Shown piece by piece: positions 1 through 31,659 of a stretch of 64,000 nt of DNA. The position numbers and the translations under genes were made by a program. The notes under the pieces were generated by a model. It did no database searches and was not told the origin of the DNA. It saw only the letters and a list, made by a program, of their open reading frames with translations. Position 1 is the first letter of the stretch. Each line of letters begins with the position of its first letter. The DNA is taken from assembly GCF_055900595.2 (NCBI RefSeq), contig NZ_CM148325.1. One strand, 5' to 3'.

Positions 1-627
1 GTAACGCAGGGGCTTTCCGAAGCGGGTTATGTCATTGATGCCGTTTCTGATGGCAGAGATGGGCTTTATCTTGCGCTGAAGGATGATTATGCATTGATCA
101 TTCTGGATATTATGCTTCCGGGTATGGATGGCTGGCAGATCTTACAAACGTTAAGAACAGCAAAGCAAACCCCTGTTATTTGCCTTACTGCAAGGGATTC
201 TGTCGATGACAGAGTCAGAGGGCTGGACAGTGGAGCAAATGATTATTTGGTAAAACCTTTTTCATTTTCTGAGTTGCTGGCAAGGGTTCGGGCACAATTA
301 AGGCAACATCACGCTTTGAATTCAACATTAGAAATCAGTGGCTTAAGAATGGACTCTGTAAGTCAAAGTGTGAGCAGGGACAATATCAGCATTACACTGA
401 CGCGCAAGGAGTTTCAGTTACTTTGGCTACTGGCCTCCAGAGCTGGCGAAATTATACCCAGAACGGTTATTGCGAGTGAAATTTGGGGAATCAACTTTGA
501 TAGTGATACCAATACGGTGGATGTCGCCATTCGCAGGCTCCGCGCAAAAGTTGATGATCCTTTTCCTGAAAAGCTAATCGCCACAATCCGGGGGATGGGC
601 TATTCATTCGTAGCGGTAAAAAAATAA
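1..627 (+). CDS. hprR: OmpR-family response regulator HprR (YedW), 5'-truncated by window edge
   Basis: Frame 1 is open from nt 1; translation has receiver and winged-helix domains matching YedW; stop overlaps the next ATG (TAATG). Confidence 0.85.
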   Translation, partial: VTQGLSEAGYVIDAVSDGRDGLYLALKDDYALIILDIMLPGMDGWQILQTLRTAKQTPVICLTARDSVDDRVRGLDSGANDYLVKPFSFSELLARVRAQLRQHHALNSTLEISGLRMDSVSQSVSRDNISITLTRKEFQLLWLLASRAGEIIPRTVIASEIWGINFDSDTNTVDVAIRRLRAKVDDPFPEKLIATIRGMGYSFVAVKK

Positions 628-1985
628 TGAAAAGATTATCTATAACCGTCCGTTTAACCTTGCTTTTTATATTGCTGCTGTCTGTTGCTGGCGCTGGAAT
701 TGTCTGGACTCTCTATAATGGCCTGGCAAGTGAGTTGAAATGGCGCGATGATACAACACTCATTAACCGGACAGCACAGATCAAGCAGTTGTTAATTGAT
801 GGGGTAAATCCAGATACGTTACCTGTATACTTTAACCGGATGATGGATGTTAGTCAGGATATCTTGATCATTCATGGTGATGGCATCAATAAAATTGTTA
901 ACCGGACAAATGTCAGTGATGACATGTTAAATAACATACCTGCTAGTGAGACAATCAGCGCAGCTGGCATTTACAGAAGCATTATTAATGACACTGAGAT
1001 TGATGCTTTACGAATTAATATTGATGAAGTTTCGCCATCATTGACGGTTACTGTGGCTAAATTGGCTTCAGCCAGACATAACATGCTTGAACAGTATAAA
1101 ATTAATAGCATTATAATTTGCATTGTCGCCATTGTACTTTGCTCAGTATTAAGTCCGCTGTTAATCAGAACGGGATTACGAGAGATCAAAAAGTTGAGTG
1201 GTGTAACGGAAGCGCTGAATTATAACGATAGCCGGGAGCCTGTTGAGGTTAGCGCATTACCGAGAGAACTAAAACCTCTTGGGCAGGCGTTGAATAAAAT
1301 GCATCAAGCCTTAGTCAAAGATTTTGAACGCCTAAGTCAATTTGCTGACGATCTCGCTCATGAACTTAGAACGCCAATTAATGCATTACTGGGTCAGAAT
1401 CAGGTTACGCTCAGTCAAACCAGAAGTATCGCTGAATATCAAAAAACAATTGCCGGTAACATTGAAGAGCTGGAAAATATTTCGCGGTTAACAGAGAACA
1501 TACTGTTTCTTGCCAGGGCAGATAAAAACAATGTTTTGGTGAAACTGGACTCGCTTTCTCTCAATAAGGAAGTCGAAAATTTGTTGGACTATCTTGAATA
1601 TCTTTCAGACGAGAAAGAGATTTGCTTTAAGGTCGAGTGCAATCAGCAAATCTTTGCGGATAAAATTTTACTGCAACGAATGTTATCGAATCTTATTGTT
1701 AACGCCATTAGATATTCGCCAGAAAAATCGCGTATTCATATAACCAGTTTTCTTGATACCAACAGCTATCTTAATATTGATATCGCCAGCCCTGGAACGA
1801 AAATTAATGAGCCTGAAAAACTCTTCCGTAGATTTTGGCGGGGAGATAATTCGCGTCATTCCGTAGGTCAGGGACTTGGTCTTTCTTTAGTCAAAGCGAT
1901 TGCCGAATTACATGGGGGAAGTGCTACGTATCACTATCTCAATAAGCATAATGTGTTCCGGATTACGTTGCCGCAAAGAAATTAA
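627..1985 (+). CDS. hprS: Sensor histidine kinase HprS (YedV)
   Basis: 452-aa ORF with N-terminal TM segments, HAMP and HisKA/HATPase motifs (HELRTP, GLGLS); translationally coupled to hprR. Confidence 0.88.
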   Translation: MKRLSITVRLTLLFILLLSVAGAGIVWTLYNGLASELKWRDDTTLINRTAQIKQLLIDGVNPDTLPVYFNRMMDVSQDILIIHGDGINKIVNRTNVSDDMLNNIPASETISAAGIYRSIINDTEIDALRINIDEVSPSLTVTVAKLASARHNMLEQYKINSIIICIVAIVLCSVLSPLLIRTGLREIKKLSGVTEALNYNDSREPVEVSALPRELKPLGQALNKMHQALVKDFERLSQFADDLAHELRTPINALLGQNQVTLSQTRSIAEYQKTIAGNIEELENISRLTENILFLARADKNNVLVKLDSLSLNKEVENLLDYLEYLSDEKEICFKVECNQQIFADKILLQRMLSNLIVNAIRYSPEKSRIHITSFLDTNSYLNIDIASPGTKINEPEKLFRRFWRGDNSRHSVGQGLGLSLVKAIAELHGGSATYHYLNKHNVFRITLPQRN

Positions 1986-2092
1986 CATAGGGCTTCAGTA
2001 CGCCATAAATTAACCGTGAAAAAACGCAGCCACGTCGTGAATACTAACGCGGCTGCGATTGATTATGCGCTTACATTAAAACGTAACAGGGA

Positions 2093-2944
2093 TTAACCCG
2101 CGTAAGCTGCCAGCATTTCCTGCGCCGCCAGTTTACCCAACGCATTCGCTGAGAAAGGACTGTCGCCGGTGAGAAGTTTACGGTCCTTATGTACTCGCCC
2201 GGTGATGTCGTCATTAATGATGTTCATGCCCATTTTCTTCAGTTCTTCGCCGAAGTACCAGTTGAGATGACCCGGCATATAGCCTATCTCTGGCGTTTGT
2301 TTGTCAGCGGCGTCTGGGAATGCACAAATGGAATAACCATTCAGTGGGTTATCGCCGTGGCGAAGCGCCAGAAAAGCCGCCGGGCCGTGGCAAAGGGAGA
2401 TAACAAAACGGTCATTTTTGATTGCCCACTGTAAAGCAGCAGCCACGTCCTGGCTTTCTGGTAAACCAATAAGTGCGCCATGACCACCAGGAACAAAGAT
2501 TGCTGCATATTCGCTATCAGCGTTGAGGCTGGCGACAACATCCGCGAGTTTCTTCGGATTGCGGAACAACGATTTATGCTGCTCAAAGAATGGCATTACT
2601 TTTTCATCTTTGTGCGGCATAGCCCAGTATTCAAACTTGGTCATCAGACCGGAAATGGTCGCCACTTCGAATTCGAAACCTGCAGCATGGAGATGATACA
2701 ACGGCAGCAACGTTTCAATCGGATGGTTACCAGTCGAGAACAGTTTTCCGTTATCGGTCGGCAAATAACGTTCGTCCGCGGCGATCACCAGAATTTTATG
2801 CTTACCGCGATACGGTTTTGGATAGTCCACGCCATCAAGATCAGAGACGGGACTGGTATATTGGCTAAGCGAATATTCTGAAGGGAAGAATGCATTATCT
2901 TCAGCAATATCGACCTGCGGATTTTTACTTGTTTGAACAGTCAT
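2093..2944 (-). CDS. hchA: Hsp31 glyoxalase III / chaperone
   Basis: 283-aa ORF, DJ-1/PfpI family, translation matches HchA; ATG at 2944. Confidence 0.93.
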   Translation of the reverse strand: MTVQTSKNPQVDIAEDNAFFPSEYSLSQYTSPVSDLDGVDYPKPYRGKHKILVIAADERYLPTDNGKLFSTGNHPIETLLPLYHLHAAGFEFEVATISGLMTKFEYWAMPHKDEKVMPFFEQHKSLFRNPKKLADVVASLNADSEYAAIFVPGGHGALIGLPESQDVAAALQWAIKNDRFVISLCHGPAAFLALRHGDNPLNGYSICAFPDAADKQTPEIGYMPGHLNWYFGEELKKMGMNIINDDITGRVHKDRKLLTGDSPFSANALGKLAAQEMLAAYAG

Positions 2945-3307
2945 AGTGTATTCCTTATTGTTGCTTAGTTAGGGTAGTCACTATATTTGCGACTGAGCTG
3001 GTCGCTATTTTTAACCAGGCTGGAAAATTGAGTCAATATATCGAAAGCGGTAGTCGGCGGGTGTAAGTATGTAATGATGATGCTGCACTGGTGTTGAATA
3101 TTATTCACGCCAAATTTTCCTTATTGAGCAACGTCGTCGCAAGTGGCCTCAATGATTTTAGACCATTATCAGAGGTACGGGGCGGCGGGGAGAGATTTAG
3201 TGCTGTGGAATATTGTGGTGCTGATGAATATTTATATCCTGGATTGGTAGAGAAAAAGCTTATTTCATGCACTATTTTTGCAAATATTTCTATATGGGAA
3301 GCGTGTT

Positions 3308-3316
3308 TGTTACGGG
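3308..3316. repeat. Left copy of the 9-bp IS1 target-site duplication (TGTTACGGG)
   Basis: The identical 9-mer directly flanks both IS1 ends. Confidence 0.85.
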
Positions 3317-3371
3317 GGTGATGCTGCCAACTTACTGATTTAGTGTATGATGGTGTTTTTGAGGTGCTCCA

Positions 3372-3647
3372 GTGGCTTCTGTTTCTATCAGCTGTCCCTC
3401 CTGTTCAGCTACTGACGGGGTGGTGCGTAACGGCAAAAGCACCGCCGGACATCAGCGCTATCTCTGCTCTCACTGCCGTAAAACATGGCAACTGCAGTTC
3501 ACTTACACCGCTTCTCAACCCGGTACGCACCAGAAAATCATTGATATGGCCATGAATGGCGTTGGATGCCGGGCAACTGCCCGCATTATGGGCGTTGGCC
3601 TCAACACGATTTTACGTCACTTAAAAAACTCAGGCCGCAGTCGGTAA
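3372..3647 (+). CDS. insA: IS1 protein InsA
   Basis: 91-aa [24 protein letters not shown]..., Zn-finger/HTH InsA. Confidence 0.95.
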
Positions 3648-4069
3648 CCTCGCGCATACAGCCGGGCAGTGACGTCATCGTCTGCGCGGAAATGGACGAA
3701 CAGTGGGGCTATGTCGGGGCTAAATCGCGCCAGCGCTGGCTGTTTTACGCGTATGACAGGCTCCGGAAGACGGTTGTTGCGCACGTATTCGGTGAACGCA
3801 CTATGGCGACGCTGGGGCGTCTTATGAGCCTGCTGTCACCCTTTGACGTGGTGATATGGATGACGGATGGCTGGCCGCTGTATGAATCCCGCCTGAAGGG
3901 AAAGCTGCACGTAATCAGCAAGCGATATACGCAGCGAATTGAGCGGCATAACCTGAATCTGAGGCAGCACCTGGCACGGCTGGGACGGAAGTCGCTGTCG
4001 TTCTCAAAATCGGTGGAGCTGCATGACAAAGTCATCGGGCATTATCTGAACATAAAACACTATCAATAA
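3566..4069 (+). CDS. insB: IS1 InsB (transposase made as an InsAB' fusion by -1 frameshift)
   Basis: 167-aa ORF overlapping the insA 3' end in the -1 frame, the standard IS1 arrangement. Confidence 0.9.
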
Positions 4070-4084
4070 GTTGGAGTCATTACC

Positions 4085-4093
4085 TGTTACGGG
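4085..4093. repeat. Right copy of the 9-bp IS1 target-site duplication (TGTTACGGG)
   Basis: Identical to 3308..3316. Confidence 0.85.
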
Positions 4094-4313
4094 TTAATTC
4101 ATCAGAATGTGCATTTGGGGTGTTGGCTGGAAGAGTCGCTGGTAGATGTTATTGTGCCAGCAGGGGCAGGGTAAGGTACTGTATCGATATGCTTTGGCAA
4201 TTGCATGTGCCGCAGATGGAGATGAAATGCCAATAAAAAAGCCTGAGTTCGATGAGGGACGAACTCAGGCTAGTGTTAAGTTTTACAGTAACACGCCGCA
4301 GCGCGTTGGCTGA

Positions 4314-5429
4314 TTAGAACTGGTAGACGATACCAACTGCAAACTGGTCATCAGCTGCTGCGCCAGTAATGGCGGCGTCATCTTTATCCAGCATGTTGAA
4401 TTTGTATGCAGTATAAACGTTCATGTTCTTATTAAAGTAGTACCAGGTACCAACTTCAATGTAGTTCACACGGTCAGCGTCAACATATCTATGTCCAGGT
4501 ACCCCTTTGATATCTTTACCTTTAGAGTACACATAACCTAAGGACGGACGCAGACCAAAGTCGAATTGATACTGAACAACCGCTTCAAAGTTCTGGGTTT
4601 CATTGATAAGTTGATCACGCATTATTGTATTGCCTTCTCGATCGGCAACACCTGTATCAATAGAACCCGGAGTCATATTACGAGTTTCGCCGTACATTAC
4701 AGCTGCGTAGACATTGTTCGCGTCATACTTTGCAGCCAACGACCACAGTTCAGCATTTGAACCGTTTCCATCGGCAACTTGATCGTTGGTGCGATCAGAT
4801 TTGCTATATGCACCAACGATACCAAAACCATTGATGTTATAGTCTACAGACAACGCATAGCCGTCACCATTTTGTTTCTTAGTGCTACGGTTGCTGTTTT
4901 TGCCTTGGTACTGAATCGCAAAATCAAGACCATCAACCAGGCCAAAGAAATCATAGTTACGGTAGGTTGCAACACCGTTGGTACGACCATTCATGAAGTT
5001 GTCAGCGGAAGCCCAGGAATCGCCACCCCATTCAACTAACATATCGGTATAAGCTGCGGCATCATAAGCAACACCGTAGTTACGGCCATAGTCAAATGAT
5101 CCTAACTCGTTATATTTCAAACCGGCGAAGGTTAAACGGGTTTTTTCCTGGTTTTCACCTTCGGGCTTGCTGGCGTCGAGGTTGTATTCAAACTGACCAA
5201 AACCAGTCAGTTCGCTGGTGATTTGGGTTTCACCTTTAACACCGAAACGAGCATAGGAGGTATCTTCGTTTTCGCTGTTATTATCATCAGTATTTGACCA
5301 GATGCGTTCGCCAACCATCTTGCCGTAGAAATCAACTTTATTGCCATCTTTATTATAAATTTCAGCCGCATTTGCTGCGCCAGCAACTAATAACGCCGGG
5401 ACCAGCATTGCCAGAACTTTTCTTTTCAT
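4314..5429 (-). CDS. yedS: Outer-membrane general porin, OmpC/NmpC family, apparently intact
   Basis: Track ORF 4314..5459; start trimmed to [21 protein letters not shown] signal peptide; C-terminal ...GIVYQF beta-barrel signature. Confidence 0.8.
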
Positions 5430-5976
5430 TATGTATTCCCTTGTGATTATAATCTTCATGAATATATCAATAAGTGCCGTTATCCAAAAAAAAGCACATT
5501 TGGATACTATTCTATGAAGTTCATTTTATTTTAAGGATTACATGTAACAAATGTATTTAAAAGATTTCAAAATGTTTCTAATCTATTTAATATAATTCGG
5601 GATTATGAATTCTGAATATAAACATTCATGAATATTATAAATGCATATCAATAAGTTATGAGTTGAGCAGAAAGATAGGGGGTATCAATGATTGTTGCGC
5701 TAAACACCTGGTGTGATCACGCGCACATTAATGAAGGAATAAAAAAAGCCGGCATCATGCCGGCCCCAAAAATATAAACAAGACGATAAAAGGCTAATAA
5801 CGTAAGCATCATGACACAGAATAATAAAAAGGTATAATTGTAATCAGTGCTAATATATTGATTAAATGAATTAATAAAGCCGATATCAAAGATAAATAAA
5901 ATCGCTCAAAACGATTTTTCCTGTATTCACTGCCGTTGCGCAAAAATTATCTATTTGTTCAAAAAATGAGTGAGTC

Positions 5977-6360
5977 TTGACTGGCTCATCCAATGTGGAA
6001 AAATGTGACTTTTATCACATAATAGTACTAAGTCTGAATTTTCCGGGTTATCTCAAAATGGAATACGGTTCGACAAAGATGGAAGAGAGACTCTCTCGCA
6101 GCCCTGGCGGCAAACTGGCTTTGTGGGCTTTCTATACATGGTGTGGCTATTTCGTCTGGGCAATGGCGCGTTACATCTGGGTGATGAGCCGGATCCCCGA
6201 TGCCCCCGTGTCGGGATTTGAAAGCGATTTAGGCTCTACCGCGGGAAAGTGGTTAGGGGCACTGGTCGGATTTTTATTTATGGCTCTGGTCGGGGCATTG
6301 TTAGGCAGCATTGCCTGGTACACCCGACCTCGTCCCGCACGTAGCAGACGCTATGAATAA
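5977..6360 (+). CDS. yedR: Small inner-membrane protein YedR
   Basis: ORF with two predicted TM helices; start uncertain (TTG at 5977, GTG at 5995 or ATG at 6058). Confidence 0.55.
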   Translation: MTGSSNVEKCDFYHIIVLSLNFPGYLKMEYGSTKMEERLSRSPGGKLALWAFYTWCGYFVWAMARYIWVMSRIPDAPVSGFESDLGSTAGKWLGALVGFLFMALVGALLGSIAWYTRPRPARSRRYE

Positions 6361-6399
6361 AAACTGCTAAGGTGGCGACTCTTTGGCAACGGAGCGCGT

Positions 6400-7095
6400 A
6401 TGGACTTACAACACTGGCAGGCACAGTTCGAAAACTGGTTGAAAAACCATCATCAGCACCAGGACGCGGCCCATGACGTGTGTCATTTTCGCCGCGTCTG
6501 GGCTACGGCACAGAAGCTGGCGGCAGATGACGATGTCGATATGCTGGTGATTTTAACCGCCTGTTATTTTCACGATATTGTGAGCCTGGCGAAAAATCAT
6601 CCGCAAAGGCAGCGTTCTTCAATCCTGGCGGCAGAAGAGACGCGTCGCCTGCTCCGTGAAGAGTTCGAGCAATTTCCGGCGGAGAAAATCGAGGCCGTTT
6701 GTCATGCCATTGCCGCTCACAGTTTCAGCGCGCAAATCGCCCCCTTAACAACGGAAGCTAAAATTGTCCAGGATGCGGATCGGCTGGAAGCCCTGGGGGC
6801 GATTGGCCTGGCGCGCGTGTTTGCCGTTTCAGGGGCATTGGGCGTGGCGCTGTTTGATGGTGAAGATCCGTTCGCACAGCATCGCCCGCTTGATGATAAA
6901 CGCTACGCGCTGGATCATTTCCAGACTAAGTTGCTGAAGCTACCGCAAACCATGCAAACCGCAAGAGGCAAGCAGCTGGCGCAGCACAACGCGCATTTTT
7001 TAGTCGAGTTTATGGCGAAGCTCAGTGCCGAACTGGCGGGGGAGAATGAAGGTGTCGATCACAAGGTGATAGATGCGTTTTCATCCGCTGGCTGA
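6400..7095 (+). CDS. yedJ: HD-domain phosphohydrolase YedJ
   Basis: 231-aa ORF with an HD motif (CYFHDIV). Confidence 0.8.
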
Positions 7096-7161
7096 GCGCG
7101 TGGCCCTAAATGGCTGTAATTATGTTAACCTGTCGGCCATCTCAGATGGCCGGTGAAATCT

Positions 7162-8580
7162 ATGCAGGAAAATATATCAGTAACCGATTCATACAGCACC
7201 GGGAATGCCGCACAGGCAATGCTGGAGAAACTGCTGCAAATTTATGATGTTAAAACGTTGGTGGCGCAGCTTAATGGTGTAGGTGAGAATCACTGGAGCG
7301 CGGCAATTTTAAAACGTGCGCTGGCGAATGACTCGGCATGGCACCGTTTAAGTGAGAAAGAGTTCGCCCATCTGCAAACGTTATTACCCAAACCACCGGC
7401 ACATCATCCGCATTATGCGTTTCGCTTTATCGATCTATTCGCCGGAATTGGCGGCATCTGTCGCGGTTTTGAATCGATTGGCGGACAGTGCGTGTTTACC
7501 AGCGAATGGAACAAACATGCGGTACGCACTTATAAAGCCAACCATTATTGCGATCCGGCGACGCATCATTTTAATGAAGATATCCGCGACATCACCCTCA
7601 GCCATAAAGAAGGCGTGAGTGATGAGGCGGCGGCGGAACATATTCGTCAACACATTCCTGAACACGATGTTTTACTGGCCGGTTTCCCTTGTCAGCCATT
7701 TTCGCTGGCTGGCGTATCGAAAAAGAACTCGCTCGGGCGGGCGCACGGTTTTGCCTGCGATACCCAGGGCACGCTGTTTTTTGATGTGGTACGCATTATC
7801 GACGCGCGTCGTCCGGCGATGTTTGTGCTCGAAAACGTCAAAAACCTGAAAAGTCACGACCAGGGTAAAACGTTCCGCATCATCATGCAGACGCTGGACG
7901 AACTGGGCTATGACGTGGCTGATGCAGAAGATAATGGGCCAGACGATCCGAAAATCATCGACGGCAAACATTTTCTGCCGCAGCACCGTGAACGCATCGT
8001 GCTGGTGGGTTTTCGTCGCGATCTGAATCTGAAAGCCGATTTTACCCTGCGTGATATCAGCGAATGTTTCCCTGCGCAGCGAGTGACGCTGGCGCAGCTG
8101 TTGGACCCGATGGTCGAGGCGAAATATATCCTGACGCCGGTGCTGTGGAAGTACCTCTATCGATATGCGAAAAAACATCAGGCGCGCGGTAACGGCTTCG
8201 GTTATGGAATGGTTTATCCGAACAATCCGCAAAGCGTCACGCGTACGCTGTCTGCGCGTTATTACAAAGATGGCGCGGAAATTTTAATCGATCGCGGCTG
8301 GGATATGGCCAAAGGTGAGAAAGACTTTGACGATCCGCAGAATCAGCAACATCGTCCACGTCGGTTAACGCCTCGGGAATGCGCGCGCTTAATGGGTTTT
8401 GAAGCGCCGGGAGAAGCGAAATTCCGCATTCCGGTTTCGGACACTCAGGCCTATCGCCAGTTCGGTAACTCGGTGGTCGTGCCGGTCTTTGCCGCGGTGG
8501 CAAAACTGCTTGAGCCAAAAATCAAACAGGCGGTGGCGTTGCGTCAGCAAGAGGCACAACATGGCCGACGTTCACGATAA
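7162..8580 (+). CDS. dcm: DNA-cytosine C5 methyltransferase Dcm
   Basis: Motifs FAGIGG and PCQPFS; start trimmed to MQENISVTD (residue 4 of the track ORF). Confidence 0.92.
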
Positions 8581-9031
8581 GGCCACTCGCAGCAAAAATA
8601 TGCGCGCGATTGCCACGCGTTATACGGCGATAGAGAAGCGCCTCGCCAGTCTGTTAACCGGGCAGGGCCTGGCGTTTCGCGTTCAGGACGCCAGTCTGCC
8701 CGGACGTCCGGATTTTGTCGTTGATGAATATTGTTGCGTGATATTTACCCACGGCTGCTTCTGGCACCATCATCACTGCTATCTGTTTAAAGTGCCTGCG
8801 ACTCGAACCGAGTTCTGGCTGGAGAAGATAGGTAAAAATGTTGAGCGCGATCGCCGCGATATCAGTCGCTTGCAGGAACTCGGCTGGCGCGTATTGATTG
8901 TCTGGGAGTGCGCGTTACGTGGGCGCGAGAAGCTGACGGATGAAGCGCTTAGCGAGCGTCTGGAAGAGTGGATCTGCGGCGAAGGTGCCAGCGCGCAGAT
9001 CGACACGCAGGGGATTCATTTACTCGCTTGA
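8561..9031 (+). CDS. vsr: Very-short-patch repair endonuclease Vsr
   Basis: Start at [16 protein letters not shown]..., inside a longer track ORF; overlaps the dcm 3' end by 20 nt. Confidence 0.9.
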
Positions 9032-9940
9032 TGCGTCCTGAATAACTGGCGTAACTACGGGTTTTGCCGGGAAGAGATATTTTCCCAACGTGACCAGTAC
9101 CACCGCGAAGACAATTACGCCGAGCGCCAGCCATTCAATCTTCGACAGCGTTTCTCCGCCCAGTCCCGTACCCAGCAAGACCGCGACCACCGGGTTAACG
9201 TAGGCGTAACTGGTGGCGAGAGCCGGACTGACGTTGCGGATTAAATACATATAAGCGTTAATGGCGATAATCGAACCAAACAGCGCCAGATAGCCGACCG
9301 CAAGGAAGCCTGAAAGGGAAGGGAGCGCCGTCAGTTTTTCACCTGCAATCATCGACGCGATCATTAACACCACGCCTGCCGCCAGCATCTCAATCGCACC
9401 CGCCATCATCCCTACAGGTAAGGTAATGCGCGAGCCATAAACCGAGCCAAACGCCCAGCTAATCGAGCCGATTAAAATCAGAATCGCGCCCCACGGATTG
9501 CCGCTTAAATTTCCACCGCTATTGAGCATGATGATTCCGGCAAGCCCAATGGCAATACCCACCCATTCCAGTTTGCGCGTTTTAATGCCAAACAGGCGGC
9601 TGAAGCACAGGGTAAAGAGGGGCACGGTTGCAACCACTACGGCGGCGATGCCGGAAGGAACATTTTGATGTTCGGCAACCGTCACCATGCCATTACCGAC
9701 AGCCAGCAATAACAGGCCAATCAGCGCGGCATTGAGCAGAGGACGTAGCGGGGGGAGTTTGTGTCCGCGCAGTAGTAAAAATGCCAGCAATAAAATACCG
9801 GCTGCCAGGAATCGAACGCCCGCCATCATTAACGGAGGCCAGCTTTCCACGCCAATCCGAATGACAAAATAGGTTGAGCCCCAAATGATATACAACGCAA
9901 ACAGCGCGCCAAAAAGCGGTAATAACTGGCGGAAACGCAT
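9020..9940 (-). CDS. yedA: EamA/DMT-family transporter YedA
   Basis: 306-aa ORF, ten predicted TM helices, two EamA repeats. Confidence 0.82.
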   Translation of the reverse strand: MRFRQLLPLFGALFALYIIWGSTYFVIRIGVESWPPLMMAGVRFLAAGILLLAFLLLRGHKLPPLRPLLNAALIGLLLLAVGNGMVTVAEHQNVPSGIAAVVVATVPLFTLCFSRLFGIKTRKLEWVGIAIGLAGIIMLNSGGNLSGNPWGAILILIGSISWAFGSVYGSRITLPVGMMAGAIEMLAAGVVLMIASMIAGEKLTALPSLSGFLAVGYLALFGSIIAINAYMYLIRNVSPALATSYAYVNPVVAVLLGTGLGGETLSKIEWLALGVIVFAVVLVTLGKYLFPAKPVVTPVIQDASSE

Positions 9941-10112
9941 AATCCCTCACGGTGGAAATAAAAAGGTGGTTCATAGTAAACGTGAAAATCATTCTGCTGG
10001 CGAGAGATATAATTGCACTTGATTGTTAAAAAAATGTTGCCCTGTGAAGCAAGTATCAGAGCTGCCGTTTTTGCTTCATACTTACACCCTTCAACAATAA
10101 AAATGAGAGGGA

Positions 10113-11030
10113 ATGCTTTTGGCCGGGAGTAGTTTACTGACGTTGCTCGATGATATCGCCACACTGCTGGACGATATCTCCGTGATGGGCAAACTGGCGG
10201 CGAAGAAAACCGCCGGTGTATTAGGGGATGACTTATCGCTCAATGCGCAACAAGTTTCAGGCGTGCGGGCCAACCGGGAACTTCCCGTGGTCTGGGGCGT
10301 GGCGAAAGGATCGCTGATTAATAAAGTGATTCTGGTGCCGCTGGCGCTGATCATCAGTGCGTTTATCCCGTGGGCGATTACGCCTCTGTTGATGATTGGT
10401 GGCGCGTTTCTCTGCTTTGAAGGAGTAGAGAAAGTGCTGCATATGCTGGAGGCGCGTAAACATAAAGAAGATCCGGCGCAGAGCCAGCAGCGTCTGGAGA
10501 AGCTGGCGGCGCAGGATCCGCTGAAGTTTGAAAAGGACAAAATAAAAGGGGCGATTCGTACCGATTTTATATTGTCTGCCGAAATCGTCGCCATCACGCT
10601 GGGGATTGTGGCCGAAGCGCCGTTGCTTAATCAGGTGCTGGTGCTTTCAGGCATCGCGCTGGTAGTGACCGTGGGCGTCTACGGTCTGGTAGGGGTTATC
10701 GTTAAGATTGATGACCTGGGGTATTGGCTGGCGGAAAAATCCAGCGCGCTGATGCAGGCATTAGGTAAAGGATTATTGATTATCGCGCCCTGGCTGATGA
10801 AAGCGTTATCGATTGTCGGCACGCTGGCGATGTTCCTCGTCGGCGGCGGGATTGTGGTACATGGTATTGCGCCGCTGCATCACGCCATTGAACATTTCGC
10901 CGGGCAGCAAAGTGCAGTGGTGGCGATGATATTACCGACTGTTTTAAATCTGATTCTTGGATTTATCATCGGCGGCATCGTGGTGCTGGGAGTGAAAGCC
11001 GTAGCGAAAATACGCGGTCAGGCACATTAA
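10113..11030 (+). CDS. yedI: DUF808 inner-membrane protein YedI
   Basis: 305-aa ORF with an ATG start; matches YedI. Confidence 0.8.
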
Positions 11031-11108
11031 TACTCGCACAGGCTATTATGCAAAATTCGCCATCTTCAACTAAGGTGAACAAGTTTCACTCGAAAAAAGG
11101 AGGCGAGT

Positions 11109-11291
11109 ATGAGCTTTATGGTTAGTGAGGAAGTTACGGTTAAAGAGGGCGGCCCGCGGATGATTGTCACCGGATACTCCAGCGGTATGGTTGAGTGTCG
11201 TTGGTATGACGGTTACGGGGTCAAGCGGGAAGCTTTTCATGAAACCGAGCTTGTTCCGGGGGAGGGAAGTCGTCCTGCGGAAGAAGTTTGA
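11109..11291 (+). CDS. yodC: Small protein YodC
   Basis: 60-aa ORF MSFMVSEEVTVKEGGPRMIV..., RBS-like AAGGAGG upstream. Confidence 0.65.
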   Translation: MSFMVSEEVTVKEGGPRMIVTGYSSGMVECRWYDGYGVKREAFHETELVPGEGSRPAEEV

Positions 11292-11528
11292 AAGGGTATC
11301 ATTAACACCCGACCGGATGTGGCGCTCACGTCGCATCCGGTCGGGTGTACCAGTGTCTGCACTGAATTGCCTGATGCGACGCTATCGCGTCTTATCATGC
11401 CTACGTTATAAAACTATCGATGTCTGTCGCGTCTTATCATGCCACCATTATAAAATTATCGCTGTTTTGCGGTACGCTATCGCCAGGTTATGCCAGAATC
11501 ATAAAAAAGCAGGTTGGGAGTCGTCAGG

Positions 11529-14053
<2,525 letters not shown>

Positions 14054-14332
14054 TTACCAGGATGATTCTCAAAACAGCACAAATAATCAAAGATGATTTT
14101 TTCGGGAGCGATCCCGTTGACGCCAGAGCCACCAAGGGGTGACGCACGTCACATTTCTATTCATAAGTAGCGTTAATCATTCATATCGCGAATATTTTCT
14201 TGTCAGCGAAAAAAATTGCGGATAAGGTGATGAACACATCAGATTTCCTGGTGTAACGAATTTTTTAAGTGCTTCTTGCTTAAGCAAGTTTCATCCCGAC
14301 CCCCTCAGGGTCGGGATTTTTTTATTGTGCAT

Positions 14333-27680: not shown

Positions 27681-28232
27681 ATGAAAAAACTTATCGTTTC
27701 AAGTGTATTGGCATTCATAACATTTTCTGCGCAGGCCGCAGCATTTCAGGTCACTAGTAATGAAATAAAAACAGGAGAGCAACTTACAACGTCTCATGTA
27801 TTTTCTGGATTTGGGTGTGAGGGGGGTAATACATCGCCCTCATTAACCTGGTCTGGTGCTCCAGAAGGCACCAAAAGCTTTGCCGTAACTGTGTATGATC
27901 CAGATGCGCCTACAGGCAGCGGATGGTGGCACTGGACTGTTGCTAATATTCCAGCAACGGTAACATATTTGCCCGCTGATGCAGGAAGACGTGATGGTAC
28001 AAAACTTCCGACTGGTGCTGTCCAAGGCCGAAATGATTTTGGCTATGCGGGATTTGGTGGAGCATGTCCTCCCAAAGGAGATAAACCCCATCATTACCAG
28101 TTTAAAATATGGGCTCTAAAAACTGATAAGATTCCTGTGGATTCTAATTCCAGCGGAGCGTTAGTTGGTTATATGCTTAATGCCAATAAAATTGCAACCG
28201 CTGAGATAATACCCGTTTATGAGGTAAAGTAG
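27681..28232 (+). CDS. ybcL: Periplasmic PEBP/RKIP-family protein YbcL
   Basis: 183-aa ORF with signal peptide; matches YbcL. Confidence 0.85.
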   Translation: MKKLIVSSVLAFITFSAQAAAFQVTSNEIKTGEQLTTSHVFSGFGCEGGNTSPSLTWSGAPEGTKSFAVTVYDPDAPTGSGWWHWTVANIPATVTYLPADAGRRDGTKLPTGAVQGRNDFGYAGFGGACPPKGDKPHHYQFKIWALKTDKIPVDSNSSGALVGYMLNANKIATAEIIPVYEVK

Positions 28233-28241
28233 GATAAGAGT

Positions 28242-29039
28242 ATGCTGGCAAAAGATAGGACTAACCTAAAGATTGAAGAAATACGGATGCATAAACATCA
28301 TGAGATTCACAGGGTTAAGCCTCTTATGCCAGCTTTATGTCGTATCCGTCAGGGAAAAAAAGTTATCAATTGGGAGACGCATAGTCTAACTGTTGATAAT
28401 AATCAGATAATATTATTTCCCTGTGGATATGAATTTTATATTGCGAATTACCCAGAAGCAGGTCTTTATCTTGCAGAAATGCTTTATTATCCCATTGATC
28501 TAATTGAAAAGTTCCAAAATCTTTATGCGATAACCGATCAAATTCGTAACACGACAGGTTTCTGCTTACCTCAGAATCCCGAGTTAATATATTGTTGGGA
28601 GCAACTAAAAACATCTATTTCCCGAGGCTTCTCAACGCAAATTCAGGAACACTTAGCAATGGGCGTTCTACTTTCATTAGGAGCACATCATGTTAATTGT
28701 TTACTTTTATCAGATAGTAAACAATCATTAATAAGTCGTTGTTATAACCTAATGCTATCCGAACCTGGAACAAAATGGACAGCAAACAAGGTAGCGAGAT
28801 ATCTCTACATTTCTGTTTCCACATTGCATCGCCGTCTGGCAAGCGAGGGAGTAAGTTTTCAAAGTATATTGGACGACGTGAGGTTAAATAATGCGTTGTC
28901 TGCTATACAAACGACAGTAAAACCCATCAGCGAGATTGCCAGGGAAAATGGTTACAAGTGTCCTTCTCGTTTTACTGAAAGGTTCCATAATCGTTTTAAG
29001 ATAACACCAAGAGAGCTAAGAAAAGCGTCCAGAGAGTAA
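28242..29039 (+). CDS. ybcM: AraC-family transcriptional regulator YbcM
   Basis: 265-aa ORF with C-terminal AraC-type HTH. Confidence 0.82.
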
Positions 29040-29390: not shown

Positions 29391-30019
29391 TATACGTTAA
29401 GATGCAACTACAGCAGAAATTGCCACTGTTAATTTTTTCATCGTGAGCCCTTTTATTTGAACTATTATTTAAAAATGATGTCACTGCACTATAAATATTC
29501 ATCCAATCAATGAGATTATTTCAAGATGTAAGTTTTAGTTTCTCATTTAAATTGTGAAGTAGATCCCTATCTTTATCTGAACTGTTTCTATTGCACACAA
29601 TGCATGACTATTTTGTGAACGAATATAAATTTGGTAGTCAAATTATATTAAAGGTTGTTATTTATGATTGACTCATAATTTATTTATTTAATTTAAATAG
29701 CCTAGAAATAACCATGGAAATTATTTGCATGATGTTTGTTTGGATTTATTAATGTAATTGAGGTGGTTTTATTTAATACGCAATATAGCGCCGCTTGATA
29801 TTAGTTCTATTTTTTTTGCGTAAGATAGATGAGACAAACAGAGACGCATAATGGTTTGCAAGGCTCTAATACTTTGATGTTGAGGATGTGATGGGGCATG
29901 TACGGGGCATAGTACAATGATGTCCATGCTGGTGTAGATAATCTCCAGGCTTATCCGGTGCGCCGTAAAACCCCGTCCTTCAGGGCAGGGATATAAGGCG
30001 CGGTTTTCCACCTGACCAG

Positions 30020-30443
30020 GTGTTTGCTGTTGTTCAATGTATTGGCGGATGACGGATATTGGCGCACCTCCGCAGCTACTGGCAAAATAGCCAGCACTCC
30101 ACAAAACGCCTTTGTAGTAATACCTGACTGCAATATCTGGTCGATCTCGTCGCAGTCACCTACCCGATACGCCTTTGAGGCTGTTTACCAGACTGGATAT
30201 CGCCAGTTTGGGAGGATAGTTAATTAACAAATGGACGTGATCTGGTTCGCCATCCATTTCAACCAGTTCAGCTTCAAAATCAGCGCATACATTTGAAAAG
30301 TAAGCGCGTAGTTTTTCTGTCGCGTCATGGTCAAAAATCTGACGTCGGTATCTGGTGACAAAGACCAGGTGAACATGCATCAGGAAAACACAATGCCTTC
30401 CACGCCGGATATCGGTTTCTTTTTTCACAGACCAAAGTATCAT
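30020..30443 (-). pseudogene. tnpA: IS200/IS605 TnpA (HuH Y1 transposase) interrupted by an in-frame TGA after codon 95
   Basis: N-terminal 95 aa carry the HuH motif (HVHLVF); TGA at 30156-30158; the same frame continues ...YYYKGVLWSAGYFASSCGGAPISVIRQYIEQQ (conserved TnpA C-terminus). Confidence 0.75.
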
Positions 30444-30450
30444 TTGGCCT

Positions 30451-31659
30451 GTGAAACGACTACAGGCATTTAAATTCCAGTTAAGACCAGGTGATCAACA
30501 GGAGTGTGAAATGAGGCGCTTCGCAGGCGCATGTCGTTTCGTTTTCAATCGTGCTCTGGCGCTTCAGAATGAGAATCATGAGGCCGGTAATAAATACATC
30601 CCTTACGGGAAAATGGCTTCCTGGCTGGTTGAGTGGAAAAATGCCACTGAAACGCAATGGCTTAAAGATTCTCCCTCACAGCCATTGCAACAGTCACTGA
30701 AAGACCTTGAGCGGGCTTACAAAAACTTCTTCCGGAAGCGGGCTGCTTTTCCCCGATTCAAAAAGCGGGGACAGAATGATGCATTCCGCTACCCGCAGGG
30801 CGTTAAGCTCGATCAGGAAAACAGCCGTATTTTTCTGCCGAAACTGGGCTGGATGCGTTACCGCAATAGCCGTCAGGTCACGGGTGTTGTGAAAAATGTC
30901 ACTGTCAGCCAGTCCTGCGGTAAGTGGTACATCAGTATTCAGACAGAAAGTGAAGTATCCACTCCGGTTCACCCTTCAGCATCAATGGTCGGGCTGGATG
31001 CTGGCGTGGCTAAACTCGCCACGCTGTCAGATGGCACAGTCTTTGAGCCTGTAAACAGTTTTCAGAAAAACCAGAAGACGCTGGCGAGACTTCAGCGACA
31101 GTTAAGCCGCAAGGTCAAATTCAGCAACAACTGGCAGAAGCAGAAACGCAAAATACAGCGACTGCATTCCCGTATCGCAAATATCCGCAGGGACTACCTT
31201 CACAAAGTCACAACGACCGTCAGCAAAAACCACGCAATGATAGTCATTGAGGATTTGAAGGTCAGCAACATGTCAAAGTCAGCAGCGGGTACGGTCAGCC
31301 AGCCGGGGCGCAATGTCCGGGCAAAATCAGGTTTAAACCGTTCGATACTGGATCAGGGCTGGTATGAAATGCGCCGCCAGCTTGAGTACAAGCAGCTCTG
31401 GCGTGGCGGTCAGGTGCTTGCTGTTCCGCCAGCGTACACAAGCCAGCGTTGCGCGTGCTGTGGTCATACAGCGAAAGAAAATCGCCTGTCACAAAGTCAA
31501 TTCAGATGCCAGGTATGTGGATATACAGCGAACGCCGATGTAAACGGCGCTCGTAACATTTTAGCGGCGGGGCACGCCGTTCTTGCCTGTGGAGAGATGG
31601 TGCAGTCAGGCCGCCCGTTGAAGCAGGAACCCACCGAAATGATTCAGGCGACAGCCTGA
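30451..31659 (+). CDS. tnpB: TnpB (IS605 OrfB) RuvC-like RNA-guided endonuclease, apparently intact
   Basis: 402-aa ORF with RuvC-I (GLDAG), RuvC-II (IVIEDLKV), zinc finger (CACCGH...CQVCG) and RuvC-III ([10 protein letters not shown]). GTG start at 30451; an ATG at 30511 is the alternative. Confidence 0.85.

Follow-up and report, generated by a model that had tools for sequence, protein, structure and literature searches.

An IS1 copy in the spacer between two genes raises the question of whether it is a plain addition to the chromosome or a change to the expression of its neighbours. In the window analysed here, a stretch of 64,000 nucleotides of contig NZ_CM148325.1, such a copy lies between hchA and a yedS-type porin gene. 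The original prediction, made from the letters alone, described it as a complete element that had arrived by a simple and probably recent insertion, and suggested that it could change the promoter architecture of hchA or add an outward promoter. We compared the element with known IS1, the insertion site with complete E. coli genomes and metagenome contigs, and the surrounding spacer with promoter and RNA models, and weighed the possible readings against each other.

Structure of the element and its neighbourhood

The bounds of the element enclose exactly 768 bp. They include terminal inverted repeats that agree at 18 of 23 positions (IRL vs IRR) as well as insA and insB, and a perfect 9-bp duplication lies on either side, so that the predicted anatomy proved exact to the base (Table 1). 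The InsAB′ frame is open over 232 aa for a −1 shift at any point of the A-run. The fused protein matched the IS1 transposase profile NF033558 with 245 bits (cutoff 100) over profile positions 1–199 of 199, and its N-terminal zinc-binding domain was recognized as NF050000 (37.9 bits, cutoff 28). At the DNA level, the copy is 100% identical across all 768 bp to copies labelled “IS1-like element IS1A family transposase” in RefSeq, which occur in many E. coli genomes including REL606.

IS1 has been described as an element of 768 bp with IRL and IRR, insA and insB, an A6C motif for −1 frameshifting and a target duplication of 8 or 9 bp; its 232-aa InsAB′ bears zinc finger (ZF), HTH and DDE motifs, and its promoter PIS1 partly overlaps IRL (PMC12428005). 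The promoter-like site that our scan located in IRL corresponds to this known weak promoter. Because every defining feature of IS1 that is testable in a sequence was found, the element is, judged by its sequence, a member of the IS1 family and an exact copy of IS1A. With IS1A/IS1 of E. coli K-12 it shares the 768 bp, the imperfect 23-bp inverted repeats, insA and insB′ with the A6C motif, the 232-aa InsAB′ and the 9-bp duplication. The difference is one of chromosomal location only, as the TGTTACGGG target 364–372 bp upstream of hchA is unoccupied in K-12. All sequence requirements for transposition are intact in this copy.

The two flanking 9-mers, which had been called identical, showed no difference on careful checking: TGTTACGGG is present at both ends of the element, and string checks showed that the repeat stops at 9 bp on either side. 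No further occurrence was found on either strand of the 64-kb window, in which any given 9-mer should occur about 0.49 times. The chance that two 9-mers abutting IS1 would agree is 3.8e-6.

Matches to NCBIfam and synteny with K-12 agree with the names hchA and yedS proposed for the neighbours. Between IRL and the ATG of hchA (A at 2944, minus strand) lie 372 bp, and between IRR and the stop of the porin gene (4314) 229 bp, in line with the predicted distances of about 370 and 230 bp. The gene order in K-12 is drpB-rseX-yedS(pseudogene)-hchA-hprS-hprR, and the yedS-hchA spacer measures 591 bp there vs 592 bp in the window after the IS and one 9-mer have been taken out. K-12 MG1655 carries only the yedS pseudogene at the porin position; the RefSeq “porin” WP_000824355.1 is found at the equivalent place in genome CP062868 and in one of the genomes with another spacer insertion (L002). 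Read along the minus strand, the porin gene is followed by a terminator-like hairpin, then by IS1, entered via IRR and left via IRL, and finally by the upstream region of hchA. The sRNA gene rseX (5741–5830, minus strand; 95 bits, full length) occupies the same place as in K-12, with the porin gene on one side and drpB on the other, and another sRNA gene, dsrA, was identified at 14233–14319 on the plus strand (102 bits, full length).

No Rfam family was detected between 2900 and 4400 at E-values up to 1. In some genomes, PGAP annotates a 64-aa “hypothetical protein” that spans the insertion point (e.g., at 2587–2781 of L005); it corresponds to 3091–3321 on the plus strand of the window and its continuation. 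This reading frame was considered as an interrupted gene and rejected: since it is without a start codon and contains an in-frame stop in the window allele, in CP062868 and in K-12, it is probably an over-call and not a gene.

Table 1 Features of the IS1 copy and its neighbours, and other IS1 events at the locus, in window coordinates
Feature	Position	Strand or orientation	Basis or remark
hchA, glyoxalase III / Hsp31, intact, 283 aa	2093–2944	−	NF003168, 525.8 bits (cutoff 365)
Left target-site duplication copy, 9 bp, TGTTACGGG	3308–3316		single copy in uninterrupted allele, five genomes
Complete IS1, IS1A type, 768 bp, IRL end nearest hchA	3317–4084	+	direct reading, string checks
IRL, 23-bp left terminal inverted repeat, GGTGATGCTGCCAACTTACTGAT	3317–3339	+	18/23 positions match IRR
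Promoter-like site within IRL, CTGCCA-16-TATGAT, direction into insA, away from hchA	3324–3351	+	promoter scan
insA, 91 aa, zinc finger + HTH, repressor	3372–3647	+	ORF; IS1 transposase profile positions 1–81; IS1/IS1595 zinc-binding domain
insAB′ transframe gene, 232-aa transposase after −1 shift	3372–4069	+	open fusion; NF033558 match
insB′ frame	3566–4069	+	ORF list
A6C slippery motif AAAAAAC, −1 programmed frameshift	3623–3629	+	string check
IRR, 23-bp right terminal inverted repeat, reverse complement GGTAATGACTCCAACTTATTGAT	4062–4084	−	string check
Right target-site duplication copy, 9 bp, TGTTACGGG	4085–4093		direct reading, string checks
Terminator-like hairpin + T-run downstream of porin gene, between porin gene and IS1	4240–4271	−	sequence scan
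yedS-type porin gene, intact, ORF extendable to 5459, 371–381 aa by start	4314–5429	−	NCBIfam, OmpF/OmpC/PhoE-type porin
Spacer IS1, M2	3215–3223	as window	duplication GTGGTGCTG
Spacer IS1, 27992	3220–3228	inverted	duplication GCTGATGAA
Spacer IS1, RM9088	3239–3247	inverted	duplication CCCGGATTG
Spacer IS1, B-JRPT-4119	3297–3305	as window	duplication GGAAGTGTG; 11 bp from window’s site
Spacer IS1, 2020S05-235	4164–4172	inverted	duplication GGGCGGGGT
Spacer IS1, F1022	4207–4215	inverted	duplication GTGCCGCAG
IS1 deletion, O157:H16 PEA12-26	2502 joined to 3132		lost: hchA 5′ end
IS1 deletion, REL606	2738 joined to 46820 (hchA to uvrY)		lost: ~41 kb incl. fli genes
IS1 deletion, AMSCJX02	2821 joined to 6658		lost: hchA 5′ end through yedJ 5′ end
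IS1 deletion, EH10-18-47	3298 joined to 5928		lost: porin gene
IS1 deletion, H7	4430 joined to 5972		lost: most of porin gene (5′ part) + porin-drpB spacer

Distribution and age of the insertion

To reconstruct the allele without IS1, 300 bp from each side of the element were joined into a 600-bp query, with one copy of the 9-mer counted in the left half. This empty site is uninterrupted, contiguous and 100% identical in five complete E. coli genomes, with one copy of the 9-mer. Of the 5,426 complete E. coli genomes searched, 4,722 have a match to at least 80% of the query. The exact left junction (400-bp query) was absent from all 5,426 genomes, with the IS placed in the orientation of the window or inverted, and a 30-mer across the IS1 junction matched no metagenome contig in the collection. 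All near-matches to the junction were mapped and each was found to be a different event. Among them, F1022 (OY754357) was considered as the same insertion, with half-sites 1,377 bp apart, and rejected, as its IS1 lies elsewhere in the spacer and is inverted (Table 1). Since the empty site exists in five genomes and the junction in none of the complete genomes or metagenomes searched, the insertion is simple, as had been predicted, and strain- or lineage-specific rather than fixed in all related strains. None of the genomes searched shares the exact insertion site, as is routine for IS1.

The AT-rich spacer that separates hchA from the yedS-type porin gene on this E. coli chromosome was, we infer, the target of an intact, autonomous IS1 of the IS1A type. 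According to what is known of the IS1 family, the transposase would have bound IRL and IRR and linked both ends of the element to a target cut with a 9-bp stagger; repair of the gaps would then have duplicated TGTTACGGG, and flanking DNA would have been neither lost nor rearranged.

The same arrangement might be suspected to be a misassembled repeat, a product of IS1-IS1 recombination or the junction of an adjacent deletion. IS1 was found in 4,970 of the 5,426 complete E. coli genomes, at a median of 11 places per genome, and such multicopy elements are often collapsed or misplaced in short-read assemblies; moreover, deletions bordered by IS1 do exist at this locus in other genomes. However, recombination or deletion would leave unmatched flanks, as at four other loci compared here and in REL606, whereas the two flanks of the window’s copy adjoin each other in the empty allele, where the 9-mer is present exactly once, and each end of the IS is bordered by one perfect copy of it. 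Random misassembly would not yield a correct 9-bp duplication either, and we give an artefact or rearrangement almost no probability compared with simple insertion.

The prediction had further called the insertion probably recent, and this claim held in part. CP062868, one of the five genomes with the empty site, equals window positions 1–8393 minus the IS at 99.95% identity (7.6 kb of immediate flank). Given this value and the complete identity over 600 bp, the insertion would post-date an ancestor that the copies of the local allele shared very recently, and a recent date is plausible. Over the adjoining 25 kb (4094–29000), however, the closest complete genomes reach 99.5% identity at best and include no clonal relative, so that “recent” is only loosely bounded. 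An old insertion, fixed in a whole unsampled lineage and absent from the collection because its relatives are missing, would fit this lack of a clonal relative among the genomes compared. Even after substantial time, the 9-bp duplication would be expected to remain perfect and the 768-bp IS intact, and gene conversion can homogenise IS copies. The identity of the empty allele in five genomes and the near-identity of the 7.6-kb flank in CP062868 argue against such an age, as do the zero differences between this copy and the widespread IS1A sequence; we therefore regard an old, fixed insertion as unlikely.

The ancestry of the window is a mosaic, and no genome is close throughout. Positions 1–2738 equal E. 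coli B REL606 at 99.96%, and for positions 28000–52000 the identity to AMSCJX02, an isolate from a giant panda, is about 100%; over 1–2821 and 6658–11497 the same isolate reaches only about 97.7%. The window also contains an IS200/IS605 remnant at about 30018–31659, in which a degraded tnpA lies beside an intact 402-aa ORF of the InsQ/TnpB family (30451–31659, plus strand); in AMSCJX02, whose corresponding segment is 100% identical, the degraded tnpA carries a pseudogene annotation. Just upstream of this remnant, DLP12-like homologues of ybcL and ybcM are located at about 28000–29039.

Other IS1 insertions and IS1-bounded deletions at the locus

When the near-matches were mapped onto window coordinates, at least 17 independent IS1 events were counted at the locus. 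The 592-bp spacer between hchA and the porin gene alone received at least seven independent insertions, including that of the window, among the 5,426 genomes and the window, and the porin gene itself is interrupted independently by IS1 in at least six other genomes. Six independent IS1 ends, again including the window’s and in both orientations, fall into the AT-rich stretch 3215–3316.

Expected counts were derived from the genome-wide density of 2.2e-6 IS1 places per bp. For the whole spacer no enrichment was found (8 observed vs 7.0 expected); a hotspot at this scale can be rejected, as occupancy equals the genome-wide average. The 102-bp stretch 3215–3316 held 5 IS1 vs 1.2 expected (P ~0.008, for a stretch chosen post hoc). 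Because only this post-hoc sub-window is enriched, we treat the cluster as a side note and not as a finding. IS1 reportedly prefers AT-rich DNA, and the cluster fits a taste for AT-rich, dispensable DNA, so that a special explanation is unnecessary. A further-reaching reading would be that the AT-rich trough about 270–370 bp upstream of hchA is a preferred landing pad of IS1, whose copies are selected through hchA or porin expression or act as seeds of hchA-proximal deletions. We consider this quite unlikely; if it were true, the window’s copy would represent the intact “before” state of the deletions in E. coli B, AMSCJX02/28Eco12, the O157:H16 strain and others.

In several genomes (five of the loci compared), IS1 with unmatched flanks marks IS1-bounded deletions, by which the 5′ end of hchA, the porin gene, drpB or the 5′ end of yedJ were lost (Table 1). 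The IS1 of AMSCJX02 is flanked by CGGTTTTGG and GAAGAGTTC, the same flanks that were tabulated for isolate 28Eco12, in which an “IS1-like” element was placed “within hchA” (PMC6963479). The IS1 junction of REL606 corresponds to a deletion known from E. coli B (REL606/BL21), which spans 41 kb from uvrY to hchA (PMC3032704). E. coli B and the window have the locus in common, a 100% identical IS1 and the closely matching hprRS-hchA flank (window 1–2738). In contrast to the window’s copy, which deletes nothing, the IS1 of E. coli B is inverted and lacks a target duplication, with hchA codons joined directly to uvrY. As a simple adjacent deletion would preserve the orientation of the element, the arrangement in E. 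coli B is not derivable from the window’s copy in this way. Derivation of the AMSCJX02 deletion from the window’s insertion was likewise rejected, as the IS1 is inverted there, too, and only 91% identical.

Likely consequences for hchA and porin expression

Candidate core promoters of hchA lie within about 100 bp of its ATG, one as a scan match at 3036–3007 and one as the hexamer TATAGT at 2985–2980, recognized by inspection, and IS1 keeps a distance of at least 270 bp from them. Within IS1, the only promoter-like site is that in IRL, which is on the plus strand and points away from hchA. Hybrid promoters are said to be created by IS1 ends. Compared with such hybrid promoters, which are the subject of a general review (PMC9330008), the likeness here is an outward −35-like TTGGCA in IRL that faces hchA; the difference is that the flank offers AAACAC, AACACG or ACACGC at a spacing of 16–18 bp, none of them −10-like, so that the defining feature is lacking. 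A promoter scan across both IS1 junctions found no outward hybrid promoter at consensus level. Thus, neither a change in the hchA promoter nor an added outward promoter, as the prediction had proposed, is borne out by promoter distance, by the direction of PIS1 or by the junctions. On the other side of the element, the terminator-like hairpin already separates the porin gene from IS1. Considering the distance and direction of the promoters, the lack of a junction promoter and of an Rfam RNA, the absence of a broken conserved ORF and the intact neighbours, we rate it as by far most likely that the insertion is neutral or negligible for the expression of hchA and the porin gene.

The route to an effect that remains would be disruption of AT-rich or H-NS-bound DNA upstream of hchA. 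A regulatory insertion would act by splitting an AT-rich region that is a putative site of H-NS nucleation or bending, or through an outward or hybrid promoter at IRL, and would alter the transcription of hchA in a bgl-like manner. The gene hchA is reportedly silenced by H-NS and dependent on sigma-S. Within the spacer, GC content is lowest from 3195 to 3295 (0.26–0.34), and IS1 sits at the edge of this trough, where it puts DNA of 53% GC in place. The H-NS-silenced bgl operon is activated by insertion of IS1 or IS5 upstream of its promoter, according to PMC9678765 and PMC12428005, and the former also indicates that an IS can lift such silencing from a distance of hundreds of bp upstream. The likeness to hchA consists in an IS1 within AT-rich DNA upstream of a gene that H-NS reportedly represses; the distance to the candidate core promoter is greater at hchA, and the parallel is no more than a resemblance.

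The five other independent IS1 ends in 3215–3305, vs about 1.2 expected from genome-wide density, could reflect selection instead of target preference. However, the P value of this small cluster is post hoc and occupancy of the whole spacer is at the genome average. Both orientations are represented among the nearby insertions, and several of the events delete hchA or the porin gene, which fits tolerance together with a preference for AT-rich DNA better than selection for hchA activation. Together with the distance of the IS from the candidate core promoters and the lack of both a consensus-level promoter across the junctions and a −10-like hexamer behind TTGGCA, this makes a regulatory insertion very unlikely. 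Should the expression of hchA (glyoxalase III/Hsp31) nevertheless be changed, it would be one more case of IS-mediated regulation and would establish no new principle.

The element is thus very probably an autonomous IS1 of the IS1A type, private to this strain or a close unsampled lineage, that arrived by simple insertion and has no or a negligible effect on expression. The kind of event is already known, i.e., it is an ordinary IS1 insertion; few bacterial insertion sequences have been studied as thoroughly as IS1, E. coli strains routinely differ in their IS1 insertions, and the copy alone matters little. It is usable as a strain marker. Once inserted, it would add portable homology and an active IS end able to seed later adjacent deletions. 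In a wider sense, the locus illustrates how IS1 repeatedly inserts and then removes its neighbours, be it hchA, the yedS-type porin gene or, as E. coli B shows, the entire fli region.
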